A stretch of 64,000 nucleotides of DNA from contig DATKGN010000008.1 of assembly GCA_035510735.1 (NCBI GenBank), positions 76,466 through 140,465 on the forward strand, given 5' to 3'. This DNA comes from Patescibacteria group bacterium (GTDB lineage: Bacteria > Patescibacteriota > Microgenomatia > UBA10105 > UBA927). Under the pieces are notes generated by a model. That model saw only the letters and a list, made by a program, of their open reading frames with translations. It had not been told where the DNA came from and did not search any database. Below, one piece after another: positions 177 through 51,900 of this stretch (its first letter is position 1; every line of letters starts with the position of its first letter). Position numbers and translations under genes: made by a program.

Positions 177-234
177 AAAGCGAACCCATCATAATCGTAA
201 ATCCTGCTCTTGTAAAGCGCTTTTTGGTTGCCAA

Positions 235-1122: not shown

Positions 1123-1214
1123 GTCGAATCATTATATCCCGACACGTCGATTTGTCTACCCGCTATATTTTCATCTTCTGACACGTATGGTAAAAGATAA
1201 AGATTAGACCTACC

Positions 1215-4237: not shown

Positions 4238-4256
4238 AGGAACTCTTCTTAGAGTA

Positions 4257-6053: not shown

Positions 6054-6755
6054 ATGCCCATGCGTCTTTCATCACTATCAATACTCATTCCTGCATACAA
6101 TGTTGAGCATACAATTAACAAAGTGGTTACAGATGCCCATGCGGTTGGAAAACAAGTAACGGACAATCTTGAGATCATCGTAACTGACGACGCCAGCGGT
6201 GATGCAACGGGTAAGCAGCTCCTTCACCTGAAACAAACGGTGCCGCATCTCCGGATTATTACGCATAAAATTAATCGGGGATACGGAAAAACCATTAAAG
6301 AACTATACCAATTAGGCCGAAGGGAATGGTTATTTTCGCTTCCGGGTGATGACCAATTTGATGCAAAAGAACTCATGGCGTTACTGCCCGAAACAAAACA
6401 TGCTGACATGATTTTGGGTTGGCGGGAAAAACGTCAGGACTCACTACGACGCCTCATCCAATCCAAAACGTACAACGCAATTCTCAATATTCTCTTCCAT
6501 CTCAACGTCCATGATGTGAATACCATTCGACTCATGAAACGATCTGTTGTTCATTCAATCCCCCTCAATTCTGATACCGCTTTCGTCGATGCAGAACTTG
6601 CGATACGATTACAGAAAAAGAAATTAAAGATTATTGAAATTCCGATTCATCATAAAATGAGAAAAGATACAGGCGCAACCGGCGGAAAATTTATTATAAC
6701 TATCTATCCGACAATCATTGATATTATCCGGATGAAATTCAGCGGGAATACGTAA
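6054..6755 (+). CDS. Glycosyltransferase family 2
   Basis: 233 aa. LSILIPAYNVEHTI and IVTDDASGDAT (DxD). Confidence 0.8.
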   Translation: MPMRLSSLSILIPAYNVEHTINKVVTDAHAVGKQVTDNLEIIVTDDASGDATGKQLLHLKQTVPHLRIITHKINRGYGKTIKELYQLGRREWLFSLPGDDQFDAKELMALLPETKHADMILGWREKRQDSLRRLIQSKTYNAILNILFHLNVHDVNTIRLMKRSVVHSIPLNSDTAFVDAELAIRLQKKKLKIIEIPIHHKMRKDTGATGGKFIITIYPTIIDIIRMKFSGNT

Positions 6756-6819
6756 GCTCTTGAATTTTTGGTGAGTATTATGGTACTGTGAGCGGTGACC
6801 TGCCTCAATTACGCTTATC

Positions 6820-13520: not shown

Positions 13521-14066
13521 TTACATTGATAAATTTTTTGTGTTTATCCCAAAAAGTTTCGTAATAACTTTATAAAATTGGAGAATAAATTGACCAAACG
13601 GAGTGATCCTGTATCCATCCCCTATTCTGGTAATTGTCCCCGTGTGAATCTGTTCGTTAAACCGTTTATCCATCGCTCCATTTTTATTTACATATGTATC
13701 AATAAATGCATTCGTAAACTCTTTCTGTGTAATCTCTTGGTTATTATTGCCTCCCATATACCCCAGAAAATATACGGATATAGACCTGTCGGCAGTTACC
13801 GGAACAAGCGTAAAAAACACGAGGTTGACACAAAAAAGAACGGTGATCGCAAGAATGATATCGTGATTTGTAACACTTGGAATAATTGCACGTACTTTTA
13901 ATAATCCCAATCCGATTGAACATACGACACAAACTATGAAAAGAAGAATAATTCCTCTATAGAAAAAAATTGTCTCGCGAAATAACGGCGTATGAAACAG
14001 TGCGATATATAATACTGTTCCCGCAACAAAACTCATTACATAAAAGAGAATCGTTTTCTTTAGCAT
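13521..14066 (-). CDS. Small integral membrane protein (3-4 TM), unknown function
   Basis: 181 aa. Hydrophobic helices (MSFVAGTVLYIALF, IILLFIVCVVCSIGLGLL, IILAITVLFCVNLVFFTLVPV) followed by a soluble tail. Confidence 0.55.
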   Translation of the reverse strand: MLKKTILFYVMSFVAGTVLYIALFHTPLFRETIFFYRGIILLFIVCVVCSIGLGLLKVRAIIPSVTNHDIILAITVLFCVNLVFFTLVPVTADRSISVYFLGYMGGNNNQEITQKEFTNAFIDTYVNKNGAMDKRFNEQIHTGTITRIGDGYRITPFGQFILQFYKVITKLFGINTKNLSM

Positions 14067-27949: not shown

Positions 27950-30900
27950 TTATTGCGCCCTCATACTATTTGGCATTACCTGCTTTCCGCACATTTTTTC
28001 CAGCTGTGGATTTGAACTATGTGAATCAAGCAACCTGTTCACCGTATATAAATCGTTTATTGCATAATAATCCGTCTCCAACTTGCGTAATCCCTGATAA
28101 CTTAATTCACCTGGATCGAAATATAGCTTCTGTATAAGGAAACTAACGACGTCGGGTGATACTTTATCCAGCAATGCAGACATCGTTACCACATGATATG
28201 GTGATCCCATACGGTCGCTCAAATTATAATCATAGTAGATATTATCAAGAAGACTCATGGAATTTGCATCACCGTTGTGAATGGCTGCATAAACCTCAGG
28301 ATGAGCCTGAACCAAAAGCTGGTTATAAGGCAGCGAGGTTGAAAACGTATCAAGAATATTTTTACTCATCCAATATTCATTCATATAATTATTCATCGTC
28401 TCATCGCTGGTGCCCCATTCACGTTCCCGGGCGGCATACTTATAAAAATCGGCTAAATCTGCCACACTGGCATTTATATTGCCATTATCTTGTTCTAAAA
28501 ACAGTTCAAGAACATGAGAGGATGAGGTTGGCGCACCGCTTGTTTGAGACTCTTGTTCTATAAAGGAGGAGAGCATATCAAAATAATTGCGTCTCTGATC
28601 CGTAAGATCGGTAAAATGCCCGCTTCCCTGCATCCCATATAATAATCTTCCTAAATCATGAGAACCGTTAGATTTTGCTAAATATAACAATCCCATAAAA
28701 TTACTAGGACTCGTCTTACCTAAATACATATCAGCATTTGCGCTCATTAAATTCGTTTTATACTGCAGGATACTTGCTAAATATTCCGGCGATACGGTAT
28801 CAATCGGATTTTGATTTTTTAGGTCTGAAGGGGAAATATCAATGGATTTCGTAACGAATGAATAAAAATCACTTGTTGAAGTATAGCCGCCGGAACGGTT
28901 CCAATAAACGGCATTTCCTGGATGTGCTTCTTTATACAAATTAATGGAATCCTGTATCGTTTGTGAAAACGGCTGATAATATTTATTCGTCACTGCCGGA
29001 ATGTTTCCCGGCCGTATCACATTATATGCATTTGCAATTACATCAATTGGAAGCGCCAGGAGTGACGGCAAATGCCCGATTCCACTTAATATATCAGATA
29101 TTGCGGGCTGCGCGTTACATTGCAGTGCATCAGATCTGGTTAATAAAAGGAGTAAAAACGCTAATGAGAGTCGTTTACGGCGCTCATCACCTGGCCCTCC
29201 AAATTCTTTTGTCATAAAACCCCGGACATCATCCGAATAATGTTTTATCCAAATAAAGTTCCCTATCCCACCTAACCCTGATGTAGCTTTGAACCCGACC
29301 CGAATGGATATTGAACAGTTTGTCCCAACACTCGTTCCATCCTGGGCATACACGCGGGAGACAAGAGGGTTATAGGAAAAACAATCAGGATTATTTACTT
29401 TACTCAAAAAGCTCTTCACTTTTTCCCACACTCTCTGGTACCATGGAGGCTGAGTAGCCGGCGGAACGTAATTGTTCGGCGCTAATGAAAATCCGGAAAA
29501 CTTAGATTGCACACCGCCCGGACCGGACATGGTATATGGTTCGTTGTTTTCCTGTACGAATCGGAGTCCCTGCGCAGTGAAGCGCCAGAAAGGTTCAGGG
29601 TGTTTTAGTTTTTCCGTACCTATCGGAATGTGATAATCCAAGTAACCAATCCGTATAAGTACGGCAAATAGGACATTATTCGGTTCTAACGTAAATACCG
29701 CACCCTCTTTCATAACAGAGCTAACATACAGATTCATCATGCTTATATCTGACTCACTTCTTTCAATACCAAACCCTTTGGGACCCAGGTCAGCTGCTAT
29801 TTTACCGATTGCCGACACTGCATTGACGATGTATGCGCTTGCCATATCACGGGCATCGGATTGATTCACAGCCCCGTACATCTCTGATGTTGAATATCTC
29901 GGATCAATAATAAAGTGACTAAGCTCTTGAACTTCGACATCAGATAACATTGGTCTTACGGCATCAATCAATGTGCGAAACGTCGTATGACCATGGAGGG
30001 GTTCAAAGACGTTAAGATTTCCCAGATTAGAAGCAGGGATACCCGCGGGCATGATTCCAATCCGGTTGATACCTTTCCAAAATTCTTGTAAGAGTTCCCT
30101 TATTCCGTATGTTGTAGTAGACGGATTAATCGGTTGCGCCGAATTTTGCACATTTAACGGAACGAGCGGAGCCACCAGGGCTTGTGTATAAATACGCTCC
30201 CGTTCGATCGCCCATTGTTCGTCTTCCGGTACAAAACCGCGGAATTGACCGCTCGTCATATAGGCATTCAAGAGCAACGTTATTTGTTCATTGGTCAACA
30301 CGCCCGTTTTCTCGAAGATCCGACGCAACGTTCCGGTCAAAAAGCCTGGGTGTCTATCTTTTTTCACAGGATCGATACTTAAGAGCCAATTTTCTAAACC
30401 GGACGTCGGATTATCTATTCCTGTCCGATAATCAAGAAGGAGAAATTTTTCCCAAAGCGAAAAATTTGAAAGATCGGCGCGGGATAATTTTATGGTCGCA
30501 TCATCAGATGTTGCGTAATTTTCCGCAGCGCTCCTCGGGATACCGGAAAGTAACGCCAAGCGGATGGTGTGAAGCCTATCATAGCTGGTAGATGTATCCC
30601 ATTCACTAGGATTGTCCGTAAGCCACTCTTTTGGATCCGCAAGCGATTCCTCAGGGAAAACTCCTGTATTTGCCGGTGCGCGGATAACCTTTCCTGCTGC
30701 TTGAAAATTCAGAAGCGAATATTGTCCGTTTGCGTGCCGCACAACTCCATAGGTCGGATTCTTCCCTATTGCAGCAATAAGTAGCGCTCTATCCTCCGAT
30801 GAAAGCTTATTCATCCAGATGGTAAATTGTGTACTATCTTCAGGGTAATAACCGGCGTAGACTTTACGGACATTGTCAGTTTTCGTAATGACACTCTTTA

Positions 30901-33900
30901 CCTCGTCGGGCAAGCGGGAAAGAAGCTGATCATACGCACGTAAACCCTCCTTGGCATTTGCCAAATCTATGGGCAACGCGGACACATCCACTCCTCCAGA
31001 TGACTTTGGCGCGGGTGAAGGTTGGCTTGAATTAGGAAGTATAATTCGCAAGCCTCCCAGTACCCCACGCCGCCACCACGGAAGCCGTATGATAAGACTA
31101 CCTAGATACCGCTCCCATGATTGATATTTTGCAACATCGGTAGTTGTCGTGATTGGCGCTGTCGGGGTCAGTTTCATGAGCTGGGTCATCTCCGTATTGG
31201 TCACGCCATATTGCTGAATTAACCGAAGCGCTCCTCGGGTATCAGATGGATCAAGTCGTCCGCGCAAGTATTCCCATTCGTACGGCTCGCGTGCAAGTGG
31301 CGTACCGATCACATCAAAGAAGTATGCGCGCGTCTGTCGGGCATCATCCAATGCATTTGCCGTATCCAATGTACTGATAACCCCCTCAAGCCGGCTTAGA
31401 TTTACAGCGTCTGATTGATCCAAGCCGGTTGGCACCAGATCCATAATCGCTGAGGACACCGTCGGGCGGACGAGATATTTCTTCCCTCCTTTTTCAATAT
31501 ACGGAAGCTGGGTTAAGAAATACGACCGTAATTCTTCCAAATCACGTGCCTGACTCGCGTCCAAAAGTACGTACATATCGTTCGCTGCCTCGCGTTTTAT
31601 GAAAATATTTTTTACCCCCCACCGGTGGAAGAGAAATTGGGCATATTTTTCAAACTGCATCTGTATCACTTCGTCCCCTGCAGCATCCCCAAAATCGGTA
31701 TTAAAAGGCTTTATGAGCTGTCCGATGCTGAGGCGTACTACCAACAGTTTTGTCGGATGGGTGGCAATGCGGGATGATAAAATAGCATCAAACCGATCCG
31801 CAAACGCGGTAACGGTGACTGACTGGTCGCCCGACTCCGCGCGGAATGATTTTTCAAGATCCTGTGCTTTTTTATCCAGTACATCATCAACCAAAATTGA
31901 AGCCGCCAGTTGCTTAAGAAAATCCCGTATCGTCGGCCCGCCAAACGTTGATCCCATCTTCTGCTGTATCTCATCTGTGAGGAGGGTAAACAAACTATGC
32001 TGCTTTCCGATGCGATCAAGATCGGCAGGCGTATACGGCCAAGCTCTCTGGTCGGGCTGCAACACTTTTTCCATCGTCGTTAAGTCAGCTAAGCCCACCC
32101 CGTCTTCATCTTGAGGCGCCGGCACATACGGTGCAAAATGAACATCTATGGGTTTTTTGACAACGTTACCCCCTTCACGATACAACATCGGAAGGAGTTT
32201 CAATTGCTCGGTAACACTAGCCTCAACCTCCGCTGTAGACGTATTCTCCGGCCCGATGATGCCGTACGTATCGCCCTTGAGACGGACGATAGAAAAACCC
32301 GGACCTAGCGCTTTTTGTATGCCGTAGACGATAAGCCGAAGCGCATAATTCCCAAGCACACTCTGCCCGCCGTTGGCGTTCATCACCTGATTGATACTAT
32401 AAATCGTTTTGCCATCGATCGTGGTTATTATCTGTTTACCGGGCCCAAGAACAATCGGCAATGAACTCGAGCGCCATACTGGTTGCGGTATGCCGTCGGC
32501 ATCGTCAAGCATCTGCAGGAAGGCAGCGTCGACGAGTGGTCTTGCATCCGGCGGAAAATCCTCAATCGTCAGATGTGCAATCGATTGTTGGTGGAGCCGG
32601 TCGTAAAATCGTTCCGTGAAGAACGACAGGATGTCTGGGTGAGAGACCAGTTGCGCCACAATGCTTTGCCGCATCATTACGCGCGTCTTATCATCTAGAT
32701 ATGCATAATTGTTCAAAAATCCGTCAGCAATCGCCTCTGCCACCTGTCTTTGTTGCTCTACCAGAACGAGAGCTGCTTTCGGATCGGTATTTTGCGGTGG
32801 TGTGGGCGGATTAGATCGAGCTGGATTTTGAAACGGACCTGGTTGAACGATCGTCCTTGCGCCCGCAAACGTTAAACTGTTTTGCACGCTTTCCGGCACT
32901 ATTGACTGTACTAATGCCGACGTGCGATCGAAGAGATATTGCCACGTGCCGGGTTGAGTAAGAGCATATATTGAAGATGTAGCCACCCGCGGTAAACCTG
33001 GTATCCATGTCCAAAGTGGCGCGATCCAGTTTCCTAAAAATAAAAGACTATGTTGGACGAACGGAATCGCGCCGAAACCGAAATTCGCCCCTCCCGCCGG
33101 ATAGAGCACATCTAAATCATCGACCGATTTACTGATAAGGGTTATTAAATCCGCAACAGCCGCCACTTGTTGGTCCTTGGTAAATGCGTTGTATCTGGCG
33201 GGGTTGTTATCGACGATAAATTGCAGCACCTCGTCCTGGACTGATCCGGCAGGGAGAATGGACAATAGTTCATTTGCCACGCTTTGCATCTTCGTAATAT
33301 TCAGCTTTGAGCTCGTCATCGTCTGCAGGAACAGCGGAAACAGTTTGTCTCCTTCGAATCGGTATATATCTCGTAGGGTTGCGTTGACACCGGCCCTAAA
33401 GCCCTCTCGCTCAACGCGTAGTTCAAACGGATCTTCAAGTGTCGGCCACGAAAGATAATCTTGAATATCTGTACCCGCGTTTTCAAATTCTTTCTTCTTA
33501 TCCGGCACGATTTCCTGTGCTCGCAGTAATACGTTTTTAGCCCGATTACTTAGACTCGACATCGCCGTCGCATCCTCGGGAATTATGTTATAGCCTGCGC
33601 CCGAGAATATATTTCCGAATGCCGCCTGCTTTTCAGATTGGATTTGCGCTTCGGTAACATCGCGGAATGCTGCGACCGTAACTCTTCTCCCCTCATCCAT
33701 TGCAATATATTTAAGCGCTAACTCAGCTAAACCCTGTAATTCCCTTACTCTTTGTAATTTCTGACTATCATTTAAATCGCTATAGGGCCTTATTTTATAA
33801 CTTTCGAGTACATTATTTATATTTGTTTGAAAATCCTGAGGGTACTGTGGCAACTCAAATGATAAGGCAACGTACATGTTGGTCACAATTTGCGGATCTA

Positions 33901-36900
33901 TTGATGGTGAATTTATATACGCGCGGATCGTCTGAATAATAGATTGTGCCGTTTCCGTATTATTTTCAGGTAGGAGAGGCGGGATCTTCGGTGCGGCGAT
34001 GGGCTGCGGTTTGACGGGCTGCGGCGCATTCCCAACCGCACCCGGAACAAGGTCCTTGCCGTCTACGAGCATCACAGCGTTATTCAGATCATACTTTCGA
34101 GCCCAAATGTCACCGACAAGAATTGATTCGGTCGTAGGAACGCGTATTTGAGGATCTAGAATTGCCATAAATTGACTGACATGGCCAACCGACTTCCCCT
34201 CCTCGGTTATCACACCATACCAACCGGCGAGTGGAAGCTCCATTTCTTTCTTCTTTCCAAGGCGCCCATTTATGATTTCCGTCGCCATTATCTTTTGTCC
34301 GGGCGTGAGTGTAATACAGGGGAGTTTACCGTTCTGGGCAAAAACGGATGGAATCAGTCCAATTGGGGTATCACAACCGACAGTTGCTGTGGTATTTGTT
34401 TGAGCTTGAAGCGCCGCTTTCTTCTCTTCAGCGGCTCGTTTTTGTACGTATGTTTCAAAGTCAAAATATTGTGCAAAATTATAGTCGTTATCAGCGGCTT
34501 GACCGGCTACGGCGAGCATATTTGTATTACCCCAGTCAAAAATGACAAGCGTCCCATCATCCTGGTATCCCATCTGGTCCAGGCGTACATCACCGGCTTT
34601 TAGCGTATTACCCATAAAATCCAAAAGCTCCCGTACCCGCACAATATCTTCTTCCTTACGGATGCCGTATGGTAAGAGTAATGCTTTAATTTCCTGATCT
34701 GCTATGGCAGCATCGGGTACATACCTATGAACATCTGCGATGGACTTCACAAGCTCGTCTATGGGTCCAAACGATTTCAAAGGCACTACCCGGGCTTCCC
34801 TGATATACTTCGTATCTGCGGTTGTATCTGCCACCATGCCCCATCCGGTCACCCTGGCCAGGTTCTTGCGAAATTGCGGGAAAAATAGCCATATATACGC
34901 CTCCGTTATCGTTTCTACACTGGTATCAACCTTTATAACTTCTGCGTTTTTCAAATCATATGTTTGACGACCCGAAGTAGCGGGCGATAATCGGGCAAGT
35001 GGAACAGAGTCATAATACAATTGGTTACTTCGCTGAGTCGCACTATGGACGTCGGGTTGGATATAGAGAGTAACAAGTTGATCAATAGTCTGCCGAATAG
35101 ATTGTTTCGCCTGTTCGTCAAGTCCCTGATGACTTGCGACCATGAGCGCATCCAAAAATGCCGAAGAGGAAAGGGTAACACTCGAAGGCGCATTCGTTAT
35201 AACTGGAACAACATGCATGGTTTGGTTTGCGTCTATATTGACGCGCCAAAAGCCCGACGGCGTCTCAATCAAATCGTTATTCTTTATATGGATTGGTTCT
35301 GATGTATGGGTAATAACCGGAACCCCGTTTATCCAAACATCCTTACTTCGTTGAGTCGAGGATATTATCCAATCTGCCTTCTTACCGGCCCCGACATAGT
35401 CCGTCTGAAGCAAATATCCAGGCTCAACATATGGACGTATTTCTGTTAATTGGCTATTTAGCCAATACTGACCGTCTGCAAAAATCTTGGTTTGCCGTTT
35501 GGGGTCAGGCTTATCGGCAAGCACTGGAGGCTGATTCTGAGCTTGGCCCCCTACGACATCTTCCCCCCACACCTGTATGATGGGTTGGTTGGATAATCCC
35601 GAAGAAATATCAATTTGTTCATCAGCGGCAACGGTGGGCTGGGTTCCGAATCTCCAGGCGAACCAATTCTTTACCTTGTCCCCTACTTTCCACCATCGAC
35701 CCGCGATCGGAACGGTCATGTCGGTTGCTGTAGGGGCAACAACGCCGTTTTGATCGATCGCATAGGCTTTATACCTATTCCCAGGCTTAAGCGCACAGGA
35801 TGGCGTTTGGGCAAATACGACACCGAAAAGGTTGAATGAGAAGGGCGAACAATTACCTAACGCACTCTGATCTGTTATGGTTGACGAAAACCATGGTAAC
35901 TTATTTTCAGAAACTTTAATCCACCCCCGAAGCTCCTGATCGTCTTTCAATGGACCGGTTTGTGTATCACTCCACTCCCACCTCCGAACCGAAAAGTCTA
36001 AAAATGGGGTTAATCGGTATATCAGGCGCTTTATTGATGTTAATACACGCACTACCGGATTTTGCTGGGCTAAGTTATCAACGATTCGAATGGCATGCGC
36101 CGACGGATACAAGACAATAATTTGATTTGTATCCGTACTTCCGGGAGTGGCTTCAAACTCTTTAGTTGCTAGAGCAATACCTTCAGCAGCAAATATACGC
36201 CGGGCGTCTTCCAAATGGGTCAATATTGCTTCATACCAATGAATATTATTTGGATCGAATGCGCCAACTCCGAAGATAACCATTGCTTTCACAATCACAA
36301 AATGAAGTGCGTGGAACTGAACGAGTGGACTGACTAAACCAGTAAACACTACGTCGCGCAAGAAGCTAATTGACGGAAGAAGATAACGTGCCAAGGTCAC
36401 ACCTGTAGTTAATACGCCAATATCATCTCCCCTCATAGCCATATAAAGGGGTTTATTGGCAATATCTGTAGCCAGAAGTGGTTTATGAACATCTCGGGCT
36501 ATATTTGAAACAGACCGATCAAAACGAAAACGTGAATCCTCAACCAGGGCTGAGCCATATATCGACTGAACAAGGCCTGTTTGCAAGCTTGGTAATACGT
36601 CCGGCCCCACATATTCATCCACAATAGCTTTTGTACGTTGGTTACGTATATACGCCTCGATAATAGGATCAACAAAACTCCCATACGTGTCATGATTCGC
36701 GCTAATCACTGTTACATCCACCCCATTTATGGTTACAATCTGAACTTTATCGCGTATAAACTGTTCTAGATCTGCTTCGGTGAATTTTCCCTGCGATAAT
36801 TCGATCGCAAAATCATGTTTAGCTTTATCGAGAATCTGTTGATATTCGAGTGCTCCGGGAGATCGTTTAAGCAGTTGACCTGGAACAACCCTCCCGGGAA

Positions 36901-39900
36901 TCTGTTTCAAGGTTTCAGGAGCACCAACTGCCTCAAGTGCAACATTAGCTACTAATTCTGGCCGTATATAGAGATTTTGACTTTCAGCCGCACCGTAAAA
37001 CTTCTTAGTAAATGTAAACACTGCTTTCCGCAAATCAGAATACTCCGGGGAATTTGCAACATCAATTCTCGTGACGAACGAATGGTTTGCTACAGCATTT
37101 GCTAGTTTACTCAACGCGGATACCATTGCTTTTCCCGTTGAATCATCTAAATATTCTGGATCGATTTTTTTGCTATCAGGATCATCTATCACATCTGCCG
37201 CAGTCAATTGTTCCCTAAGTAAATTTTGGTCAATAACGTTGGTTTGAGACGTAGATAGAAGAGGTAAATGCTGATATCGCGTAACAATTGTAGTAACGAC
37301 CAAGGATATAACGATTTCCATTTGGTCCGGCGGTCCTCGCTCCGTATCCGACATGAGACCATATTGATTTTCAACTATCCGTCGAACTTCTTGAGGTGCA
37401 TTCACAGAGGTAAAATCAATTTGATCAAGTTCGGTTATACGTTTTGTTAACACAGCCTGTTGAACCACCTGAACCGGATCTTGAACCTGCGGTTTGGGTT
37501 GGATTTGAGAAATTGCTCGCACTGGTTCTTGACCCGTCCCCAAATCTCCTCCATCCACCTGCATAATTGGTTGATTGGATAATCCTGAGGAAATGTCAAT
37601 TTGTTCATCAGCGGCAACGGTGGGCTGGGTTCCGAATCTCCAGGCGAACCAATTCTTTACCTTGTCCCCTACTTTCCACCATCGTCCCGCGATAGGAACG
37701 GTCATCATTGTCCCCGTCGGGGCAACCGTGCCATCCTGATCGATTGCATGGGCTTTATACCTACCCCCCGGCTGAAGCGCACACGATGGCGTTTGGGCAA
37801 AAACAAGGCCGAAGAAGCTTTCAGTTGGAATACATGAGTCATTACTCAGCGCATGCCTTGCAAAGATAGCTTTCAATCTCCTCATTTTTAAAGGACTCCA
37901 CTGACTACTGTTAAGAATATTCCACACTTCATTTGAGTCATCTCCAACAACCCGTTCAAGTAATTGGAAAAAATCAGCCTCGTGACCCGGTGCAGCAAAA
38001 TATGAATGGCCAAAGGCAATCTGAGCGCTTCCGGGCGGCAATCCCGCAAGCTGATCAACCGAAGTCAGTACGTATTCAATTGGACCATGACTTCGAAAAT
38101 ACCCGACAATAACTGACTCTAAATGAAGTAATATATAGCTTACCTTTTTATATAAAGAAGCATGTTGGACTGCTTCCTCATGGAAATAATCCGTAAAGGT
38201 CTCATTTGGTAAATTATTAGTAAAATTTATCCGAAATTGATTACTTACTACACTTGCATGTGTAAGCTCGTGTTGAATGGCTGCTGGAATGGTAAAAGGT
38301 TGTATCCCTAATAATACAGTATCTGGTATCAATGTAAGTGGATTCGGGGGGGCTCGAAAGGCATAAAAATATAAAAAGGCAGTAGCTGGGAAAATACTTA
38401 CCCTAACTGCCCCACTCGAATTATTGCTATACCCACTCATCAAAGACGTCAGAAAAAATATGGGAATGTAAAGTACGCGATATTTTGTTTTTTCCCAAAA
38501 CGTTGATGAATTATCCCGAGCTATAGTATTTTCCAGTGTCCTATGAAACATAGAAATAGTTTTCACTACAAAACTAATTGGGTCATCGATAGTGGCAGTC
38601 CGAATAATTGTAGGGAGCAGCAATTTGGGCAACCCATATTTCCTCTGCGCGCCAATAAAATCCGAGTACGCTTCCCGACGATATAATCCGGATATTAATC
38701 CGCTACTTCGCAGATCATTATTGATCACATCCGTTGGAACTCCTTCTTGTGCGGCAACCCATCCATCCATAATTCGCTGATCGAATCGCTCATATATTTC
38801 TATTTCCTTCCTTTGATCTTCGGTAACATATTGCGCGCCGTACCACTTTGTTGTCATACGAGTTGAGATCAGACTCTGATCAATCCACGGAATGAGAGAC
38901 TTATATTTCTCCATTTCCCGTCTTAATGTATCTTTTTCCGCTTGAGTCCTTGGTGTTACCTTTTGTGTTTGATTTAATATAGTTATCAACTCATCAATCG
39001 TTGGCCTCTCAGTTTCTGGACTGACTTCTGTGGCCACGCTATTACGCAATACAGTTTCAAGGTGAGATTGCTGATGAGGTATAACAGGAAAACCCTCTAA
39101 TAGACTTGTCAGATTTATTAGTTCCGGTGTCATTTTCGCAGCGAACATTATTTTGGCTATTTCTTGTTCGATGGTTCTCGTCGGGCTTGAAGCTAATCCC
39201 GAAGGAAATAATGCTGAATTCTCTTCAATTACGGCCGTTACCGCTTTTATGTTAACCAAAATATATGTTCCTTTACTGCTTGTTAATAACAATACTCCTA
39301 AATATTTTTTGAAATATGATTGTAATTGTTGAAGCTGATCTTGAGAAAAATCAATGGAGTTATTCATATATCCGACAGGAATTAATCCTGTAGCGACACG
39401 TATAAATGTGGTGTAATCTAATGACTTGCGGGTTTCCAATGGAAGTGAATCAAGTAATTGTTGAAATGATTGTAAACCCTGCATGACACTTTCTTCGGTT
39501 ATATATTTCGGTTTTACACCGCTTTTTTGAAACTCCGACACCGCGTTTTGGACAGAATTTTCTACAATAGACCAATCTATATAATCTGATGAATTTTCTT
39601 TTGTCGATGTTGTATTAGGTTGCGCTTCGGCGGTTATTCCGGAGGCATCTATCGCGGTGATGATAGGTGCATCCATCGCAGCCTCAACTATCGGTTCCGC
39701 CGCATCAATAATGTGTCCGACAACACAGCCTGCACCACCCACCGTGCCTCCCGCCGCATATACCGCCGGAACGAGATGCATCGCACCAACGCCGCACGCT
39801 TGCCGCCTAATAGCTTTGGCTTTTTGTCTTATATAATCTTTTGCCGGAAGCGCTACGTTACGAAGTGGTTGTCCTGCACGAACTGCGGCAAGGGCAATAG

Positions 39901-42900
39901 ATGGATCAATTTTAAACGTTGGTGCTAACCGGACTCCGGGCCTTGCTGGTTTTGCTTTTTTCACCGACGTTTTTGCGTTAGTAGTTTTTACCTCAACTGC
40001 TTGTTTAAGTGTCACAGTATTAATCTGAGGAACAAACTGAATATTTCTATATTGGGACAACTGACTCGCAAGTTGGTTCAACGACTTCAACGCACCGGCC
40101 CAATATCGGAAAAATGTGATAATGTTTGGCAAAGAGAGAGATTTTGCTTGTTCTTGTGTTTGCCACTGTACATTTAGCTGTTGGAAACGATTAAAAAGAA
40201 CGGTGACAGCTGCATTTCGAGCAGTTGATTGAACAGTCGTTACTTTCACGATTGCCTTTCTGTTGCGGTAACGTTCAACCAAACCCGCAAGTAGCTGCGA
40301 TCGGAATATCAGCGAACCGAAGGCATCTGATAATTTAAGAAGCGTTCCCGCGAGAAAACCAACAGGAAGAACCGAATTTTGTGCCATCTGCGTCGCGGCT
40401 TGCGCTTCTTCTTTGGTTAGAACAATGGCGATCTGGCTTTTCCCGGGGCCGGGCGCAATTGTGCCGTATTTATTAACAAACTCATCAAACGTAAGCTCGC
40501 TGTAGCGCACCTCTCCGTCGGATTTAATCGTTTTTATCCCGTTTACATTCACTGTGCCATCATCAAGATAATTCGCATCATACACACGATATTTTCCGTC
40601 GGCCGTCTTGTCGGAAAGTAGGAATAGAATATGACCGGGCTCTTTTGAACCTTTGTTATACAGAACAATAAAGTGCCCTAATCCTGCATCCAAATCTGCC
40701 TGTGACTGCACGCGCTGCACGGCATACTGGCCTTTTACATACACAATTCCCGCTGGACTGTTGTTCAAATCATTGCCGACAATCTGCTTTGCAACTGCTC
40801 CACCAATGGTCGAAAAATCATTTATCCCACCAGGAAAATCAGTCAACCCACTTTGCTGCATAATGTTTGCGAATGCAATACATTGCACTTCCTCATTCGA
40901 AAAACCTGTTGAGGTGAAATCCAAAAATGTATACGCACTTGTTCCTTCTAATTTATCTGCCATATCGGCAAATCCATTTGCTTTGAGTCCCTGCCGCAAC
41001 GCGTCGCTTGCAGAAATTGCGTTACGTTTTGTTGGATCATTCTGCCAGTCATCAAGAATCTTCATTACTGCTCCGCCGAATTTGTCGACTTGAGAAGTAT
41101 AGACATGCCTATTTATAGAACCAGGGACATTTGCCACCGATAGAGAATTATCCGCGGCAACCTGAACATTGGTTGCAGATTGTGCAACGGGCGCAACTGC
41201 TGATTGAGGAACAACGACCTCTTGCGACACTGAAGCTGGCGGTTGTATCGGTTGTTGGTTCACAGCGGGCGGTGCATTTTGTTGTTGTGAGGTAGAATTA
41301 TTCCCAACCTGCTCATTATTTCCCGCCACAGGATTAACTGCAGAATTGGCCGGGTTAACCGGATTAACCGGGTTAACCTGAGGATTTATGGTGTTTACTG
41401 ATGGTTTTTGCTGCTGTACAACCTGGACATTATTCACCTGAGAAGGAAGGGACGCGCTGTTTCGATTGTTTTGAATCGTTGAAAAATAACCGGCAACAAT
41501 CGCAGCTAATGTGAGCCCGATGAGTAACACGGTTGCTCTCCTTCTGATCATTGGTGCACGGAAGGCAAAATATGCAAGCGTGCCGATGCCCGCGATACCG
41601 GCGAGTATACCCACCGTCGGCAGGGCTGTCATGATAACCGGTGAGATTACGGCTCCAGCCGCCGCTACAGCTGCCGTAATCCGCGCGCCATTACTCTCCA
41701 GTGCTTTTATAATGAAATATGCCGCCGCAGTTACAAGCGGGAAACCGGCAACCGCCGCGATACCACGGAAATGATCTTTTATGAAATTTCCAATAGTATC
41801 GATTGTTGAAGAAATGAATGATGGTGATTGTGAAGTTTTTATAGACGGATTTATCCGTGCACGTTCCGCCGAGATTCGTGCTAGATGTTGAACGTATTGA
41901 TTAGGAGTTACATCTGATCGGTTCGGCGTAAAAATATTTAATAGCCTTAATTTCTCCGTGACAGAAATATCGCTTCTGTCTATGGACTCTATAGCGCGTT
42001 GTGTAATAATCGCTTCGACAACACAATTAGCCATTGACCCTTTACAGGTATCCCCCGTACGTATGGCATACCCGCTCGCAATAGTATCGACGGGAATGGT
42101 CTTTAAGATCTGAGCTATCAAATCTCTCAGTAATTGAGACGACCTGTTTGCGTAATAGACGGGTTGATCTATTTTTTCATTCATAGCACCCATCCATGCA
42201 GTTGTTTTTAATTCTTCAAGATTTTGGAGATATTGTTTCCAGGCGTCTCCTGCTGCTTGCAAATATTTGTCTTTTACGTCTTTGGCACCTGTAGCATTGA
42301 TGATCCGCTGAAGCATCCAGTCGTACGTTTGTCGGGCGGCACCAAAACCTTTGAGTGCATCCGTCCTGTTAGTCGCTATCATCTGATCGTTCGCATTATC
42401 AGAGAGGAATTGTGTCTCACGCGCAACCTGTTCCCGGTTTTGAATTGTGGTCTCTGCTTCATCAACGAGCGCCATAAATGATGCATATCGGCTGTCAGAC
42501 GGGAGTATTTCTCCGGATAAACCGTTCTCGAGGTTGAGAATCCTCGCGTCATTTGCACCGAGAACTTCTTTCAAATCGTCCAATGATATGTATTGTCTCG
42601 TTGCTCCCCATGACCGTATCTGATCCTTTCCCTTGCTTACAGGGATAAGCCGGCCAACCCTCCCCCTGATTTGTTCGAGTGTGCTACTCTTTTGAAGCCC
42701 GCTGATGAGCTCAAAAAATCCTCCCGCCTCCCGGACCTGCTGGTCGGGCTGGAAATCAACACCACGGCCGATATTCGCAGTACCTACGGCAATATTCCCC
42801 GATGTGCCTGCTCTTGCAATATTTTCAGCTTTATCTCCGCCCGCGCGTTCGGATATAAAGATGGCATTCGCAAAAGCTGCAGTACTGCGAAGAGCGCTTA

Positions 42901-45900
42901 AGGCTCCTTCATTTTTAACTGCAACTAATACTGCCCTGTGTTGTGCCCGAATCGATTGTGAATCCTGACCCAATGCTTGTTCTTTCGCGCTATCTGTGAT
43001 GAACAGTCGTGGGGAGTAATCAACTCTGTCTTTTTCAAGGATAACCCATGCACCCGACTGCTTATGGACGACGCTATATATCCACTGCTTGCTTGCCTGG
43101 TCATATAACTGAACTAACAAATACTCAGGATTATTCTGATTTTGTTTTGCCATGGATATATAGAGCGGGAAAGGAATCGCTTTCGGAATCAATCCATAGT
43201 ATGTCTCAAGCTCATTCCCCTCCTGAAATGCAGTCGCGGTAAATATGACGACCGATCCCGCCTCTCTCACGAACGTCATGGTGGTCTGTAAATCAAACGT
43301 CGTATCGCTTATCTGGGTAAAATTTTGCGTCCGCCCATGCTTCGCTTCAAGCGCCCATTGGAGGCCACTTTGGAACTTTTTGTCAGCGTCCGTTATCTGT
43401 TCATCATCGAGTATCGTAATTTCCCCGGTCGTCTGATCGTAAAGGTAATCTACCCCCTCTTTCATAAGCGAAGCCTCACGGGCAAATTCGACGTAGCCTG
43501 CAAACGTGTCATCTGACATTCCGGTTGGTTGCAGTATGGATAACTCGGCAATTGCTTTCGGCGTGAGCGATGATAAGGTAATATCCTCAGGATCAAACGT
43601 ATAATAATCCCGATTCCCTGCCCATCCCTGCATTTTACCGGCAAGAGCTGACAATACATTCATCTCTATAGTGCTCAAATTTTCCGCTTCAGCGGCTTGC
43701 CCGGTACGTACTATCGGTGTTAACGCCTCTTGTAATACACTTTTATCGCCCTCATCAGGAATCAGCGTATAATCGGCCAAAGGAATGTTGACGCCGCTTT
43801 GCAACGCAAGAGAGTAGGCTTGCGCGATATCAGTTAATTTTCCGTAAATAATCGGCACATTAGGAGTGAGGTATTGTCCTTTATCCACAACTCCGGACGG
43901 CACACCAAACACGGAGAACAGATCCGAAACGTCATGTAAGTCCCGTGTAGCTAAATCGACGTTCGCTGAACTGACCAAGACTCCTGACTGGAATAATGAG
44001 CGCACTAACGCGACACAGGCAGCAGCATATGTTTTACCTGTTCCTGTCGGCAGCTGTACTGCGATATGATCGGAAGCTATCGCATCATAAATAGCAAATA
44101 GTTGAGCATCCGTAAACGATTTCCCTTTATTCGCCTGTAACACTAAATCGAAAAGTGCGACGGCACGGATTATCCGCGTATTTTTTTCGCTACCCGAAAC
44201 GTGCTTACCGGTTTTCATAACTTCATTCATAAATTCCGAGACCAGGAATTTAACCGGTCTTCCTGATTTGGTAATGCGCGCCTCTTCAGCCGCAATGGCA
44301 TCAGTAAACGTCAACTCTCCTGAATACTCGGTCCGTATAAACTTCACCATGTCGTCTTGTTCTTTACGGACGTAATTCACAGACCGGGATACTGATTTGC
44401 CATTTGTCCCCACAGTATCGGTAACGTTCATAGTTACTTTCGGAACAAAGAAATTCCCGATAGTGTGGACAACTGTTGTTACCGAGGTCGCCCGATTACG
44501 GATATCCTCCTGTAATTTTGTTCGAATGGAATCTACTAATGTCTTTACTACACCCTTATCTTCGTGGATCACATACGGTAACTCGTTTTGTACGAAGTCA
44601 TTCGTTTGATTTTTCAGACTCTCTCTCATCAGCGCTAACTCATCCGTAAACAATGAAGGATTGTTGACATGGAGAGCAAAGTTGGTAGAAAGATCCAGTG
44701 TATGGGAGTTGACCTCGCTTAACGGAACAAACAGGCTTCCAACGCCTACTGTCGTTACGGGTAATAAACTCATGTTTTTGGAATCCGGGTTATTCGGCAA
44801 ATAAAACTCTTTCAGAAATATATCGAATGGGACCGTGACTACCTGACGTACTCCTTGTCCGCCGGCTCCGGCAAAATACCTCTGAATCATATCCGTCTCC
44901 CCCATTGCGACTCCGGGGTACTTTTTCTTTAAAGCGTCAAAATTTTCCGAGGAATATAATGTCGTGTCAGCGCCAATTTCATTAGAGAATGAAAAATCCA
45001 TTGCATATCGGGTGCCGTCAATAACCGTTGTTACCACTGCGTGTGCGTCACGAATTGCCAACCACGTTACAGAGGACGGAATACCCATCGTTGATAAATA
45101 CGCCTGTGCAAGGGTTGATTGATCGCCACACGCACCAACCCCTATGGCGTCGGGTATATGATAGGTTTGAGGTGAGCGGGCAGCGGTAGTTTCTGTATAT
45201 GGATCTACTATGGAGATAGCCGCGTGAATTGCATTTAACGCATCAACTTTTTCCTGTGTACTACCCGATTGGAATATTATCTCAATGGCATCCCGTGAAT
45301 AATCTCTTCCTTTGTTTTTACCGATAATTTGGAGCTCCGAATCCAATGCAATTAATATCCCCTTCCATGCTTTGCTCTGCAAATCCTGATCATTCAGAAT
45401 GACATTGGGAAGATTCGGATTTCTTAAATATTTATTTTCATATAATGAATTAGCTACCTGAACATAAATTTTGGACGGATCATTTGTGATATACGCTCCG
45501 GTATCAGCATCATAATATTTCCCGTTATTCTCTATGACATGTTGTCCGAATGGCGTCGTATACACGGGATGATCCTTCTTTAATTGCCCCAGTGAATCAA
45601 CGTTTAATCCATTTGGTGTACTGATAGGTTGTATGGGATTTAACTGTGCATCCGCCAGTGATGGAATATTCGCGATATCGGAAGGTGAATACGTCATAGG
45701 AGTTTGTCGGCTATAGTTTGCAATAAGTGAAAGGAGATTTTTATCAACTCTTGGTGCTGCCTGCACAGATAGTGGCTGGCTATTAGATGAAGCGCCTGTT
45801 GTTGAGTTCGCCAATGAAGCTTGCGATGGATTCGTCTGAAGCGAAAGTTGGTCCAGTTGACCCTGAAGCGTATTTACCTGAACTATTACATTATTTATCG

Positions 45901-48900
45901 TTTTTATATTTACCTGTGAATTGGCATCTATTGCTGGTTGATTATTTAACGAAGCAAAATATTTTTGATTTATTGGTGAGTTCGGTATCGGGTTTCCGGT
46001 CTTATCGACCTCCAAAACCCACGCCGTAATCTTAAACGATTCTTTATTTATAACCTCGAGTGAATCTGGGACGATATTATTGGTCGAATCCGTTGGGGCG
46101 TTTTTCCCTAATATATATCCATTATTTGCAAACCACGGATTTAGGACAGCGGTATTCGGCTTCGATTCATCAAGAGTAAAATAATTACTCGTATATACGA
46201 TCTTCAACCGTTTGTCTGAATTATTAACCACAACATATGGAAACCCCGTTGAAAATGAATAATTGGAAAGATTCCCGTACCACCCCGCTAAAAATGGTTC
46301 ATGATCAAAAGGTTCATGGAGAGCATATCCGGGTTTGACAAATAATCCGTCAATGCCAGTCTGTTCTATTGCGGTCCCCAGTGTTGCCGCATCAGTGCAT
46401 ATGCCAGATCCATTTAGGCCGTTGTACACCACAAAGTGTGTCGGCATTGTTTTTCCGAAAGCAATATTTGCAATATTGACAGATTTTCCTGGTTCAATGA
46501 TTGTCCCGCTAATCCTACTCGAGACATCCGCCACATTACTCAACTTCCCCCATCCTTGTTGACCCCTTTCACCATCATAATATGCCGTAGCGGTTTGTGC
46601 CCTATTCTGCTGGAGGTATGCCATTCCGGTATCAAACGCTGTAGCGATGGTCGCACCTAAATGGGCTGTTTCATAATCCAGAAGAGATGCACCTTCAATG
46701 AAATTAAAATCTCGATGAGACAAGTTATCACCATTTATCGCCATTGATACGCCAAACCGCTGACCGTTCGGAAGTTGAATAATACCGCTGTTGTTCTCCC
46801 GAATCCAGAGATGTGGTGAATCTGTATACGATGAAAATAAGTTAATCGCAAACGGATCCTTTGTTTGAATGGAGGAAAATCCTTTTTGATTGAGTAAATT
46901 ATCGTATCCGCTCCCCTTCGGCACAAAACCACCTCTATAATTTAAAATAGACAATAAATAACCCTGTTCATCCTGATGCGACCACCAATCTGATGTTCGC
47001 AAATCTTCATTAAGAAGCGTCAATGACTGTGTCATTGCCTGAGAAACGGTTGCGTCTTGTATCGGATGTGCATTGTAATATGACCAGAATTTCATAATAT
47101 CTGCCGTAGTTGAAGTATTTGATGTGAGGTCTGTATCAGACATACCGATGGTGGCAAGCAAATTGTTTACTTGGTTACTTACTGAGGATGTAGAAAGATA
47201 TTGTGTTAATTGAGTCGCCACTTTTTGTTCACCTTTTCGTTGGGCAAGCTGTGAATCAATAATTTGTGACACCGTCATCCCGTTAAATCCTTGAGGCGAA
47301 TAGTTTAAAAGATCTTGCCCCGATAATCCTTGTTGCTCCAACAGCGAAATCAGCGCATAGACCTTTACTGTATTTAAATTTGAATCCATGGTCATATGTA
47401 CTGAATCATTCACGCCAAAGATTTTCCCTGTGTTAAGATCAATTACACTTATACTCACAACGGCATGTTTATCATTCGTAAAGTATTTATTCTGAATTTG
47501 TGTAGCTTGACTAGTTAGCGCCGCCTGCAAATTCTGGTAATTCGTCTGGCGGATTTGTTCACCGGTTACCGAACGGGTAGAAACCTCAAGATACTTTTGC
47601 CCAACGTCCGTTGACAAAAACGTATTTATATATTGGGTAATGTGATTAGTGTCCGTTTGATTACCCGACACATAGGATTGAATGGTAGTCGCAACAGTAT
47701 TCATAGTAGCTACATCGTCACTTGAAAATTCTAAATTTGAATAATTTTGTGAAACGCCCTTCAGGTCTGAAGCGAATGACGTAAGGGAAGTATTGAGAAG
47801 TTGCCTCTGCGAGGCAATTTGTTGTGAAATCTGCTCCGAAGGAGAAATATTTTTATTTGACGGTACATTAACCTGAGTATTACCTACATTGGCATTAGTA
47901 ACAGTACTTGGATTAGCCACCACTCCGGTTGTCGTATTCACTTGATTACCGCTTACGGGACTGTTTGCAACAACCGGCTTTGATTCCAACAATTGTTTTG
48001 TTGTATATTTAGCCGCGTCAGGCAATGTTGTATATTCCGGCGGAGCAATGACGGAGAAGAGCGTTGGTGTTATTAAAATACCCGTTGTTACAAACCCTAT
48101 CCAACTTAACAATCCAATGGAGAATGGTACAGCGCTACCAAAAGTCAAAATCGTAAGGGCTACCGAGGCTATTCCAAGAGCAGCAAAAACGTAAGCGCCC
48201 GTGGGGATTGGTCGACGTTGTGGTGCATATGAGGAGAGCGGTTTTGGAAATTGAACCGGCACAACAACATCGTTAGTGTCACCCTTCGCCCGTATCACGA
48301 GTTCATAATTCGTTGCATTTGTACGACGAAGGAGAACGTTGATTTGTGAACCATCCTGCATTTGGACGGTGATTGTGTTATCTACGGTCAACGGCACCCG
48401 ATCATTTCCTATAAACATCTTTATTTGCGGATCGACACCATTTTGAAGTATCTGCGGATCAAAACCGATCTGTAACGAAGAGGCGTAGACATATCGTTTA
48501 AAATCCGAAGGAGATACTATCCAAGACAACTGAATTCCATCCTGAGTTGCTTTCACGAAATGGAGCCTCCATCCAATCGTCTGCATCGGAAGTATATTTG
48601 CAAAAACATAATTTTTGTCACCCCGTGGATGTGTTGCAAGAAGTGCCTGTAGCCCTTCTTGAACGTGGACGGCAAAAAGAAAATGAAGAATTGATTTTGC
48701 CTGTTCTCTTTGAGATGCGGTCGCATATGTCGCCTGGATATCAGCATTCTTTTCAAACGCAGCCAATACAGTATTCCATTGCAATCCGGCAACATCACCC
48801 GTACGCATCGCCTGATCGACAACGCTCCGGACAAAATTATCAAGATAAAGAAGATCTGGATTTTGAGTAAAATCTTCCTCTTCGGGGCGGAAAAGAACGA

Positions 48901-51900
48901 TTTGTAATTCTTTTGAAAGGTTGCTGTAATCACCTTTCTTGAACAAATTCCATCCGGTTTTTGAAATATAATCATTAACCCTCTGAAACATTGTCAGCTG
49001 AGCGGTTAATTGAGCAGCTTGGGCTGTTTGAGCATTATTGTTTGCTTGTTTTTCTTCAATAGCGGCCAGGACTCTCAGTAATGCATTACGCGTGCTCGCG
49101 ATCCACAAATTCTCATCAACATTTGCACTGGCGAGCACGCCGTCGGCGACACCGTTTTGACGCAAATACTCCCGAAGCGCATTATCAATCTGATCTCTCG
49201 ACCCGGTCGTAATCGCGCTTCTCACTGATGGATCATCAAGAAGGGTACGCTGTAAAGATAAAAGCAAGTCTACATAGTTGATAAATACCGGCCGGCGCGC
49301 GATTTCCAGGGCTGTTACCACCCTATCGATTATTACTTGCTGCGGGGATTTCGAAGCAGCCGCGTGATACAGAATATCTCCGGTTGTCCGCGCCGCCGCG
49401 AGATTAGATTCCAAATACAATGCGGGCAGAAGTGCTGATACGATCGGTGATGTTACAACACGTGCGGCTGCCGATTCATGGACCGCGCGCTCTTTGGCAA
49501 GCGCTTCCGAACCGGCAATCAAGGCTCTGGTGTCATCTGCGGAAATAACTGAAGATGATTGCCATTGAGCCTCGGCGTCAAGTAGCTGTGCTTCCAGCGC
49601 CTGTTTTTGCTGCTCTCTCAGCGTGAGTTGTGCTTGTTGCGCCTGTCGTGTTTCGACAATCGAACGGGCCCGTGTCACCTGCGCAACCACCGTCGGTACA
49701 TCGTGTAAACTGCTCAATTCGTGAGCTATTTGATTCACAATGGATGCATCCCGGGCGTCTGCATTTTGCACCAGCCGTGCTGCAATTGTTTCCCCTGTCA
49801 GGTTCCGCATCGATTCGTCAAGAGGATTACCAATTTCTGCGATAAACTGTTGGATCGCCGCTGTATCAGTAGGGCCAACGATATTCGCAAGGACGAATGC
49901 AGTTTTAGATTCCCCGGGGTTTGTAAGATATTCATTCATTGCGACTTTTAAATCTGCGCGGCTTAGTTTCTGATCGGCATACATACTTACAAGTAACTGA
50001 TCCAAATCCGTAATGACAGCCTCCTGATTCTTTCCGGCAATTGCCTGAGTAAGTAATGTGTCCGTAACGCCAAAATATGTTAGACGCTCTTGGATAGTCT
50101 GACGGATGACTGTATCGCTTGCGCCATTAACATACTGGGTAAGCACGGGACCGGGGCCCAAAATATCCATCATTGCAAGTTCGTTTGCGGCGTGGAGCTC
50201 CTGTTGTTTTTGTTCTGTCCAAAGACCAATAAGCCGGAAAAATAGCAGACGTGTTGCGATTTGTTGTTGATCCGTACCCGTCGTTGTACCGCCATTCGTT
50301 TCGGTCGGACCGGCATTTGATCCTCCGCCGCCCGGCGGCTTAGTTCCTGTTGGTGGGGCACCCCCACCCGGTGGCGAAGAAGGCGATTCGGGATTGGTCG
50401 GCGGCTTTTGATAATTTTCAATTGATTGGATGAGCGCATCTATTGCCTTTGAAGCATTTGCCGGAAACTTGCTGCCCGCGGGCATAAGTGTACGCAACTC
50501 CTGGTAGATAGTTTGTAACGATGACTGTATCGTCTCCGACGATAAATCAGAGCGTAATAACTGGGAAATATCGGAATCTATTTTACCCAATGTTACGGCT
50601 TGTTTCTGCAGCGAATCCAGACTGCCATGCGCTTCATGGTATTCTTGGACCGTCAGGATAGTGTCCAAAAGCCATCCGGCAATGTGTGCACGGGCGTACT
50701 CCTCCGTTGAGGCAAAATTGCTATATTGAAGCGCTTCCCGGACGCCGGTTTGAAATTCTGAAGCATCAGGCTGGTTTTGACCAAAATCTGTATTTATCGA
50801 CTGACCTCTTGAGCCAATGATTGATCCGGCTTTTAAAAGTGCCATTACGTTTGGCCATGGATGCATCATGAGAGAAGCGGAGATGAATGTTACGTTAGAT
50901 AGCGACTGTGCAAACGGACCATACGTCGCCATGATGATGAGCCGGTTAATCTCTTCTGGTGTATATTCTTTGGGCTCGGGTAAGTATGCGTTTTGTATAT
51001 CCTCAAATGCTGTAGTTACCATGTCAGTTCGAAACGTAATCTGATTTGTCAGTATTTCTTGTACATACCGTTCATCCTCTCCCGCCGGCAAATGTAATGA
51101 AGCAACAAATTTCCGTACGTCGTTTTCGTTAAAATTTGCCTCCACTTTGTTGTTTGGGGAAAAGTCCGGTAATCCCTGCGGCACTGCTACCTGCGGCAGG
51201 TTCGTCGTAAGGACAATCATGGCGTTTATCGCCACATCGATATCCCCACGCATAACAGACCAAACCGTGTTGTCCCCGCCGGCCAGACTGATAGCCTGTT
51301 TCAAGAGTGTAAACGCTTCGCCGTATAATTCCTGAGTATTTTTGTCAGAAACCTGATAGAGGATTTGTTTCACCGCCGAGGACTGTGCATATATAGTCGG
51401 CCAATCATACGGTCGATCCGGTGTATGCAGAATGACACTGGCAAATACGCTCGTATTCACTCTCCCCCCATACGTATCAAGCACTCCCAGAACATCCGCG
51501 CGTTTACCACCTGGAGTAAAATCCGTAGTCATATGTTCCAAAGACATACTGTCAGGATATGAAACGCGGAGTGCAGCGATAATGTTGTTCTGCTCCGCCT
51601 GTGACAACAACCCAAATTGGTCATTACGAGCGCTAAGGAGAGCGGCCATCTGATCTCTGATGATTACCTCAGACTGATCGTTATTGAGTATGTCTTGTTT
51701 TCTCCCCCACTCATATTCCGTTACGGCAGCTAAGAGGTTTGCGAATTCACTTGTATTGATGCCGTATTGTTGGGTAATTCGAGCAGTAGATTCAGCAGGG
51801 GTGCTTCCAGCGTTCGCGCCGAGGAGTGAATTGAAGAGTTCATTTTGAACGATTACGTTAACATCAGTAAGATCGATGAAATCATGAAGAGTCGTCGCTT

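Follow-up and report, generated by a model that had tools for sequence, protein, structure and literature searches.

An identical 89-nt core in a duplicated domain of a giant Patescibacteria gene is best explained by a short gene-conversion tract

Introduction

Gene conversion and concerted evolution between paralogous segments are familiar in bacteria from tufA/tufB and, in segmental form, from surface-protein cassettes such as those of pilE/pilS and vlsE. In Gram-positive surface proteins with Rib/alpha-C or G5-E repeats, near-identical tandem repeats are kept identical by recombination, with in-frame gain and loss of units. The subject of the present work is a giant open reading frame (ORF) in a 64,000-nt stretch of DNA from a Patescibacteria group bacterium (GenBank assembly GCA_035510735.1, contig DATKGN010000008.1, positions 76,466 to 140,465 of the forward strand; hereafter the window), in which two copies of a small domain share a block of 89 nt that is identical base for base. 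Other giant bacterial genes have been described: diversity in the giant surface-protein genes of Apilactobacillus kunkeei is shaped by short intragenic recombination tracts, with exchange between strains and no recent within-genome paralogue conversion seen (Genome Biol Evol 2026, PMC12863079), and the Omnitrophota 'Archaeovorins' and some actinobacterial giants carry a SecA-like motor domain, according to the available text of West-Roberts et al. (2023, bioRxiv 10.1101/2023.11.21.568195).

The giant ORF of the window (27950..63928, minus strand) has 11,992 codons and a GTG start and is intact and essentially non-repetitive. A repeat search of the window finds one strong direct repeat within it, pairing 35542-35827 with 37528-37813 over 286 nt at 84% identity, with both copies in frame and their starts 1986 nt, or 662 codons, apart. 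Much as in conversion between bacterial paralogues, diverged paralogous DNA surrounds a block with sharp edges and perfect identity that extends to silent sites, and the copies of the domain at a related locus are mosaic. Unlike pilE/pilS or vlsE, the gene holds both partners in frame in one ORF, with two copies and no silent cassette archive, and compared with such programmed cassette systems there is no evidence here of programmed exchange or of exchange that serves variation. The likeness to Rib/alpha-C and G5-E proteins is that repeat DNA would be kept identical by recombination, whereas neither Tandem Repeats Finder (TRF) nor self-comparison reveals a tandem array, and there are two copies, 84% identical, with unrelated sequence between them. 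Exchange here would also have taken place between paralogous segments of one gene, in contrast to that between strains in A. kunkeei. The block is best explained by gene conversion over a short tract, located where the duplicated domain is most constrained, a reading to which we give a probability of about 0.65.

Results and Discussion

The duplicated domain and its identical core

Base-by-base comparison of the two copies places the longest exact run, of 89 nt, at 35610-35698 in copy 1 and 37596-37684 in copy 2, both on the minus strand; the second-longest run is 17 nt, and mismatches begin again 1 nt beyond the block on both sides. An earlier, sequence-only reading had described an internal duplication of ~100 aa with copies 2 kb apart, a core identical base for base over 89 nt, and flanks of about 80% identity. 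The duplication and the core are both borne out, although the second interval given for the core, 37595-37683, was off by one, and the flank estimate is close to the measured value of 76.6% (151 of 197 positions; 72% on the low-coordinate side and 79% on the high-coordinate side). Outside ~35542-35830, similarity between the copies drops to a background of 20-35%. At the protein level, self-comparison recovers the duplication as the sole strong internal repeat of the giant protein, aligning aa 9366-9497 with aa 8704-8834 at 67% identity (E 7.5e-57).

Copy 1 of the domain (35543..35851, minus strand, aa 9360-9462) consists of a Cys-bracketed VFAQ loop followed by an all-beta domain of ~80 aa, and copy 2 (37529..37834, minus strand, aa 8699-8800) lies 662 codons upstream of it in the protein. 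The core contributes 29 whole codons (35612-35698 in copy 1) that encode RWWKVGDKVKNWFAWRFGTQPTVAADEQI, at aa 9411-9439 in copy 1 and aa 8749-8777 in copy 2, and the copy-2 core is also present in a separately assembled contig, L001. A hidden Markov model (HMM) built from the two window copies has a single further match in the giant protein, at an independent E-value (iE) of 0.27. Limited to the N-terminal half of the domain, this third copy (34193..34375, minus strand, aa 9852-9912) is old and weak and does not include the core. The nucleotide sequence of the core is found neither elsewhere in the window nor in loci L003-L006, of which L003, L005 and L006 are described below; together with the lack of a plasmid match for 35400-38000, this led to the rejection of a mobile or dispersed element.

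Silent-site divergence inside and outside the core

The strongest indication that the block is more than conserved protein sequence comes from silent sites. Across its 29 codons there are no differences, which corresponds to 17.3 silent sites given that four of the codons are Trp and have none, whereas 16 codons of the aligned flanks differ silently only and 12 differ by replacement, giving a flank silent divergence of pS >= 0.37 and dS ~0.5. Since the changes in the flanks are mostly silent, they would reflect time and not diversifying selection, and the flanks are thus old, with purifying selection acting on them. The repeat has 76 degenerate codons that specify the same amino acid in both copies; 19 of these differ silently, and all 19 are in the flanks. 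Given a pS of 0.37, the binomial probability of no silent change in 17.3 silent sites is 3e-4; permuting the silent differences among the 76 codons yields a run of at least 25 identical codons with P = 0.0027; and when the 46 mismatches are shuffled over the 286 nt, a run of at least 89 nt appears in 1 of 200,000 trials (5e-6). The identical block is thus real and non-random, with silent-site evidence that is solid if not overwhelming.

These figures bear directly on the simplest alternative, that there was no special event and that 25 degenerate codons have stayed unchanged since the duplication through chance on top of strong protein constraint, or because they lie in a local cold spot of mutation. 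The core does encode the most conserved part of the domain, its four Trp codons have no silent sites in which to differ, and just 17.3 silent sites are involved in all. The permutation and binomial probabilities nevertheless stand against this account, as does the invariant amino-acid stretch, which at 47 aa exceeds the identical DNA: 8 of its 18 non-core codons, equally invariant in protein and lying just outside the core, differ silently. Because the invariant protein stretch outlasts the identical DNA and carries silent differences beyond it, protein constraint alone is insufficient to account for the DNA identity, and we consider an origin without a special event unlikely. Codon bias as the cause of identity is ruled out by the composition of the core itself, whose codons are not preferred ones: its 29 codons fall at the 2.6th percentile of codon-usage score among the 29-codon windows of the giant gene, with low-frequency codons such as CGA, AGA, GTA (twice), CCC and GGG.

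Search for a nucleotide-level element or a programmed switch

The absence of silent differences in the core could also mean that the 89 nt hold an element needed twice, be it an RNA structure, an internal promoter or start, a ribosome-pausing signal, or a binding site for a protein or RNA. An embedded RNA structure, an internal promoter and a pausing signal had all been suggested from the sequence, and none of them gained support. Folding of the core gives no stable structure on either strand, the minimum free energy being weaker than that of dinucleotide shuffles (-18.1 kcal/mol and z +1.0 for the sense strand, z +1.2 for the antisense strand), and Rfam has no match, either in the window as a whole (gathering threshold) or in 35300-38100 with the limit relaxed to E<=1. 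Scans of both strands place no sigma-70-like promoter and no intrinsic terminator in the core, with fewer such sites than shuffling predicts, and ORFs that cross the core in other frames or antisense are short and unremarkable, with no sign of genes. The rare codons of the core speak for a pausing signal to the extent that they could mean slow decoding of the Trp-rich beta core, a weak hint at the 2.6th percentile and too weak to interpret, so that such a signal is not established. Further evidence against a conserved element is that neither the related locus L003 nor any other part of the window contains the core sequence, and that the identical patches within L003 lie partly in other parts of the domain. 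Taken together, these results make selection on the nucleotide sequence itself improbable.

Two repeats of ~100 aa that share an identical stretch between variable flanks are also reminiscent of a diversity-generating retroelement, with its template and variable repeats, or of programmed cassette switching that uses both copies, and a dip to 60% identity at 35722-35751 coincides with a variable loop. The differences between the copies cover all mismatch types (A>G 9, G>A 7, T>C 5, C>T 5, T>G 5, among others) and show no restriction to adenines, however, and no reverse-transcriptase Pfam match is found in the giant protein and nine neighbouring ORFs, the remaining ORFs of the window not having been scanned. 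Moreover, one expressed ORF contains both copies in its reading frame, so that neither is a silent template. A programmed system of this kind is accordingly very hard to credit.

Assembly of the two copies

A perfect block within diverged repeats may also arise in the computer, if the true copies differ in the core and assembly or polishing imposed the consensus of one copy on the other. The window comes from a single assembly, and protein-database and metagenome scans recover a copy-2 fragment only, leaving the copy-1 core without independent confirmation. Several observations argue against an artefact. An intact 36-kb ORF argues for a consensus of high quality, and an 89-nt core is shorter than a typical short read; with flanks that are only 77% identical, reads spanning the core should therefore place uniquely.

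The copy-2 core is carried in addition by L001, a 1,542-nt metagenome contig from the Joint Genome Institute (JGI) that is 98.8% identical to window 37683-36147 and represents the same strain. L001 differs from the window by 17 single-base homopolymer-length indels and 1 substitution, an error profile unlike that of the window; one of the indels falls within the core (CCC to CC at 37624), and the indels leave the gene calls on L001 frameshifted. The contig stops 1 nt from the upstream boundary of the core, as expected at an assembly-graph branch caused by a true repeat, which would imply that a second sequence identical up to that base exists in the data set of L001. This evidence is supportive and not proof, and the L001 sample may not be independent of the source of the window. 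The concern about an artefact, raised when the core was first noticed, is thus answered in part: L001 carries the copy-2 core and ends at its boundary, while the copy-1 core stands unconfirmed. We rate an artefact as quite unlikely.

A mosaic locus in a second lineage

Relatives of the duplicated domain are known only from two adjacent large genes on L003, the JGI metagenome contig Ga0453684_0005004, on which a first gene (nt 64-5571) encodes P0065 and a second large gene, of 6,985 aa, begins. P0065, a protein of 1,835 aa with two copies of the domain, is the one distant relative added by an exhaustive HMMER search with aa 8500-9699 against 1.84 billion representatives, and it is 35-38% identical to the window copies by BLASTP and 39% identical in the HMMER table. 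The VFA motifs of the L003 copies lie at nt 1942 (copy a), 3724 (copy b) and 13569 (copy c), with a weaker copy at 8793.

Copy c is a three-part mosaic, in which 13521-13861 aligns successively with 3676-3747 (copy b), 1894-2025 (copy a) and nt 1-227 of the contig. Counted from the VFA codons, its informative sites are b-like between about -50 and -7 nt and then a-like from -1 to about +55, the switch falling exactly at the VFA codons; the a-like part has 93-97% identity and a 35-nt exact run. From +66 onwards, copy c is 92% identical to the first 227 nt of L003, 13.6 kb away, including an 86-nt exact run. This pattern indicates recombination between the two adjacent giant genes, and a second lineage thus shows the same phenomenon as the window, namely patchy and sharply bounded identity between dispersed copies of the domain. 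The breakpoints and patches of L003 lie only partly in the part of the domain that holds the window core, which points to generic recombination between copies and argues against a fixed nucleotide element. At ~35% amino-acid identity, the L003 copies are too distant from those of the window to polarise changes.

Gene conversion as the explanation of the core

Two features define the case for gene conversion: the copies are paralogous segments within one genome, and the identical run exceeds the expectation from flank divergence, at silent sites as elsewhere. Conversion had been proposed when the core was first noticed, and it is supported both by the sharp block with zero silent changes between flanks of dS ~0.5 and by the mosaic L003 locus. 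The conversion event itself, its direction and its recency are what we infer from these observations. The 286-nt segments would be old paralogous copies of one small domain within a giant multi-module protein, which, under purifying selection, reached a divergence of ~0.5 substitutions per silent site. The 89-nt block would then be a short non-reciprocal recombination tract, in which one copy served as the template that repaired or overwrote the other and so erased silent and replacement differences alike. The tract falls within the central, Trp-rich strands, where the protein sequence of the domain is best conserved, and since residual nucleotide identity is highest there, strand invasion and survival of heteroduplex between ~80%-identical DNA would be likeliest at this position. 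The identical core is most likely a textbook signature of gene conversion, produced by an ordinary mechanism and calling for no new biology.

Several points weigh against this explanation. The silent-site P of ~0.003 is good and not overwhelming, and the material for comparing identity within and between strains amounts to one genome and one near-identical fragment. The protein-database and metagenome scans, having found the copy-2 fragment only, provide no match for the copy-1 core in independent sequence. In addition, the flanks, where no exact run exceeds 17 nt, offer little identity for RecA-type initiation as known from well-studied bacteria, so that the tract may be what is left of an older and longer event.

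Whatever its origin, a direct in-frame identity of 89 nt could serve as a substrate for deletion or duplication of the 662-codon module. A recombination hotspot able to expand or contract the gene had likewise been suggested from the sequence, and it follows correctly from such identity, although no variant with a deletion or expansion was seen. A deletion from core to core would remove a ~320-aa domain between the copies (35897..36874, minus strand, aa 9019-9344), identified by HMMER search. It has ~60 homologues, mostly free-standing proteins of 300-350 aa, with the conserved motifs DIANKP.Y, E(D/Q)ARR, P.AH..RI and LDFSVR.W.W.D, and no Pfam match was obtained for five homologues tested. A genome scan with this domain returned two distant loci of 24-25% identity that are not orthologues, one in a Patescibacteria metagenome-assembled genome (MAG; L006) and the other in a Gammaproteobacteria MAG (L005). 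The core marks a site at which the 36-kb gene could lose or gain the 662-codon module in frame, which matters for the assembly and comparison of such genes.

Family and fold of the duplicated domain

The domain spans ~100 aa and comprises a Cys-x-V[FY]A-x-Cys loop followed by a beta domain. An AlphaFold2 (AF2) model from a five-sequence alignment predicts an all-beta fold of eight strands with a mean predicted local distance difference test score (pLDDT) of 83, rising above 86 from residue 20, and the N-terminal 19 residues form a low-confidence loop. The 89-nt core encodes the three central strands of the modelled domain. Foldseek finds no significant match to the model in PDB or BFVD. Searched against a collection of 5.8 billion proteins, copy 1 returned P0001 alone, a fragment of the same gene on L001, and the collection holds nothing beyond fragments of this gene. 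A profile of the domain has no match in genome contigs or viral contigs, and in metagenome contigs it retrieves only L001, the same 1.5-kb contig; P0065 and the second gene of L003 have no Pfam match. The duplicated domain is almost an orphan, with no sequence family or fold relative detected in these searches.

The giant gene and its neighbourhood

TRF and self-comparison of the giant gene are near-empty, which shows that it does not encode a repeat protein, and the duplication therefore stands out. The only other internal similarity of the protein is between aa 550-725 (61754-62281) and aa 10967-11149 (30482-31030), at 26% identity over 189 aa (E 2e-11), and TRF reports a single micro-repeat, a 9-nt unit CCGGGTTAA present 3.2 times over 29 nt (41350-41378, plus strand), which encodes a VNPVNPVNP run in a low-complexity linker past a cluster of putative transmembrane segments. 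No orthologue of the giant gene was found in genome, viral or metagenome contigs or in the protein collection.

Among recognisable domains, a PP2C-type phosphatase domain (58298-58876, minus strand, aa ~1685-1877) matches Pfam PP2C_2 above the cut-off. A SecA-like DEAD/P-loop motor region (42263..44203, minus strand, aa ~6576-7222) matches Pfam SecA_DEAD (1.4e-9) and P-loop_SecA (1e-3) and also NCBIfam SecA models at 1e-11 to 1e-20, all far below the cut-offs of those models, and the wing/scaffold Pfam family is not matched at E<=0.01. As a query, this region retrieved only canonical SecA proteins, at 22-23% identity, and no giant relatives. Just after it in the protein, a hydropathy scan indicates four hydrophobic, putatively transmembrane segments (41474..41764, minus strand, aa 7389-7485). 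Weak, sub-threshold matches to GGDEF and class A beta-lactamase were also recorded.

As far as the available text of West-Roberts et al. (2023) describes them, the giants of that study resemble the present protein in being long, non-repetitive, multi-domain ORFs with SecA_DEAD/P-loop matches but without a wing/scaffold match, with transmembrane segments, and with accessory signalling domains, which here are the PP2C-type phosphatase and the weak GGDEF match. On the same text, the present protein differs in that its 11,992 aa fall below the 30,000-aa class of that paper and that its SecA-like region is no more than 22-23% identical to true SecA proteins. The Cys-loop domain is not encountered in that portion of the paper.

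The part of the window beside the giant gene (1-27919) holds sugar-modification genes including a DegT aminotransferase, an NPCBM-domain protein, a protein related to alanyl-tRNA synthetase, and large polytopic membrane proteins, at least six in number, that match no Pfam family. Other sugar-modification genes of this part look, by eye, like epimerases and glycosyltransferases. The 64-kb window contains no tRNA or tmRNA genes and no Rfam match.

Cys-bracketed loops at module boundaries

The loop that opens the duplicated domain recurs elsewhere in the giant protein. Ten of the 18 cysteines among its 11,992 aa form five pairs that bracket V[FY]A[QA]. From the N-terminal side these are, all on the minus strand, a VYAA loop (39725..39796, aa 8045-8068), the loop of copy 2 (37781-37834, aa 8699-8716), the VFAQ loop of copy 1 (35798-35851, aa 9360-9378), that of the third, weak copy (34319-34375, aa 9852-9871) and a VYAQ loop (29315..29383, aa 11516-11538). 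In the protein, the transmembrane cluster precedes all five. Of 2,000 shuffles of the sequence, 4 contain the pattern C-x(3-14)-V[FY]A-x(2-10)-C, which the real protein has five times.

The same type of pair accounts for 10 of the 13 cysteines encoded on L003 (4 of 6 in gene 1 and 6 of 7 in gene 2), at aa 615-634 and 1209-1228 of gene 1 and at aa 43-52 (L003 6099-6128), 933-951 and 2521-2540 of gene 2. The pair at aa 43-52 of gene 2 sits in the cleavage region of a genuine N-terminal signal peptide, LLFVLVGEHSPC-VTS-VYA/Q-VC (LLFVLVGEHSPCVTSVYAQVC), with the slash at the putative cut. The two lineages also share a region outside the loops, aa 2662-2917 of gene 2 being 27% identical to window aa 3607-3869 (~52322-53110; E 1.7e-21). 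Its placement relative to the Cys-loop domain differs, so that module order is not conserved and modules have been rearranged between these genes.

From the distribution of these motifs, the duplicated domain would thus belong to an undescribed 'Cys-loop plus beta domain' element that recurs where the modules of such giant proteins meet. The mosaic breakpoint at the VFA codons of L003, together with the differing module order, raises the possibility that loop-encoding DNA could act as patches for module exchange. It belongs to a speculative proposal, which we hold only tentatively and think doubtful, namely that the loops may be processing sites of a signal-peptidase type (V[FY]A/[QA]) at which the giant protein is cut into modules held together by disulfides, and that their conserved DNA may provide homology patches for exchange, deletion and duplication of modules.

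Conclusions

The gene emerges as a nearly orphan giant with a SecA domain, whose C-terminal third is punctuated by the Cys-bracketed V[FY]A loop and its beta domain. The main interest lies in this unusual gene and in the Cys-loop element, and not in the identical core. Should the loops turn out to be junctions for processing or recombination, they would make the construction, export and rearrangement of giant bacterial proteins open to concrete tests.

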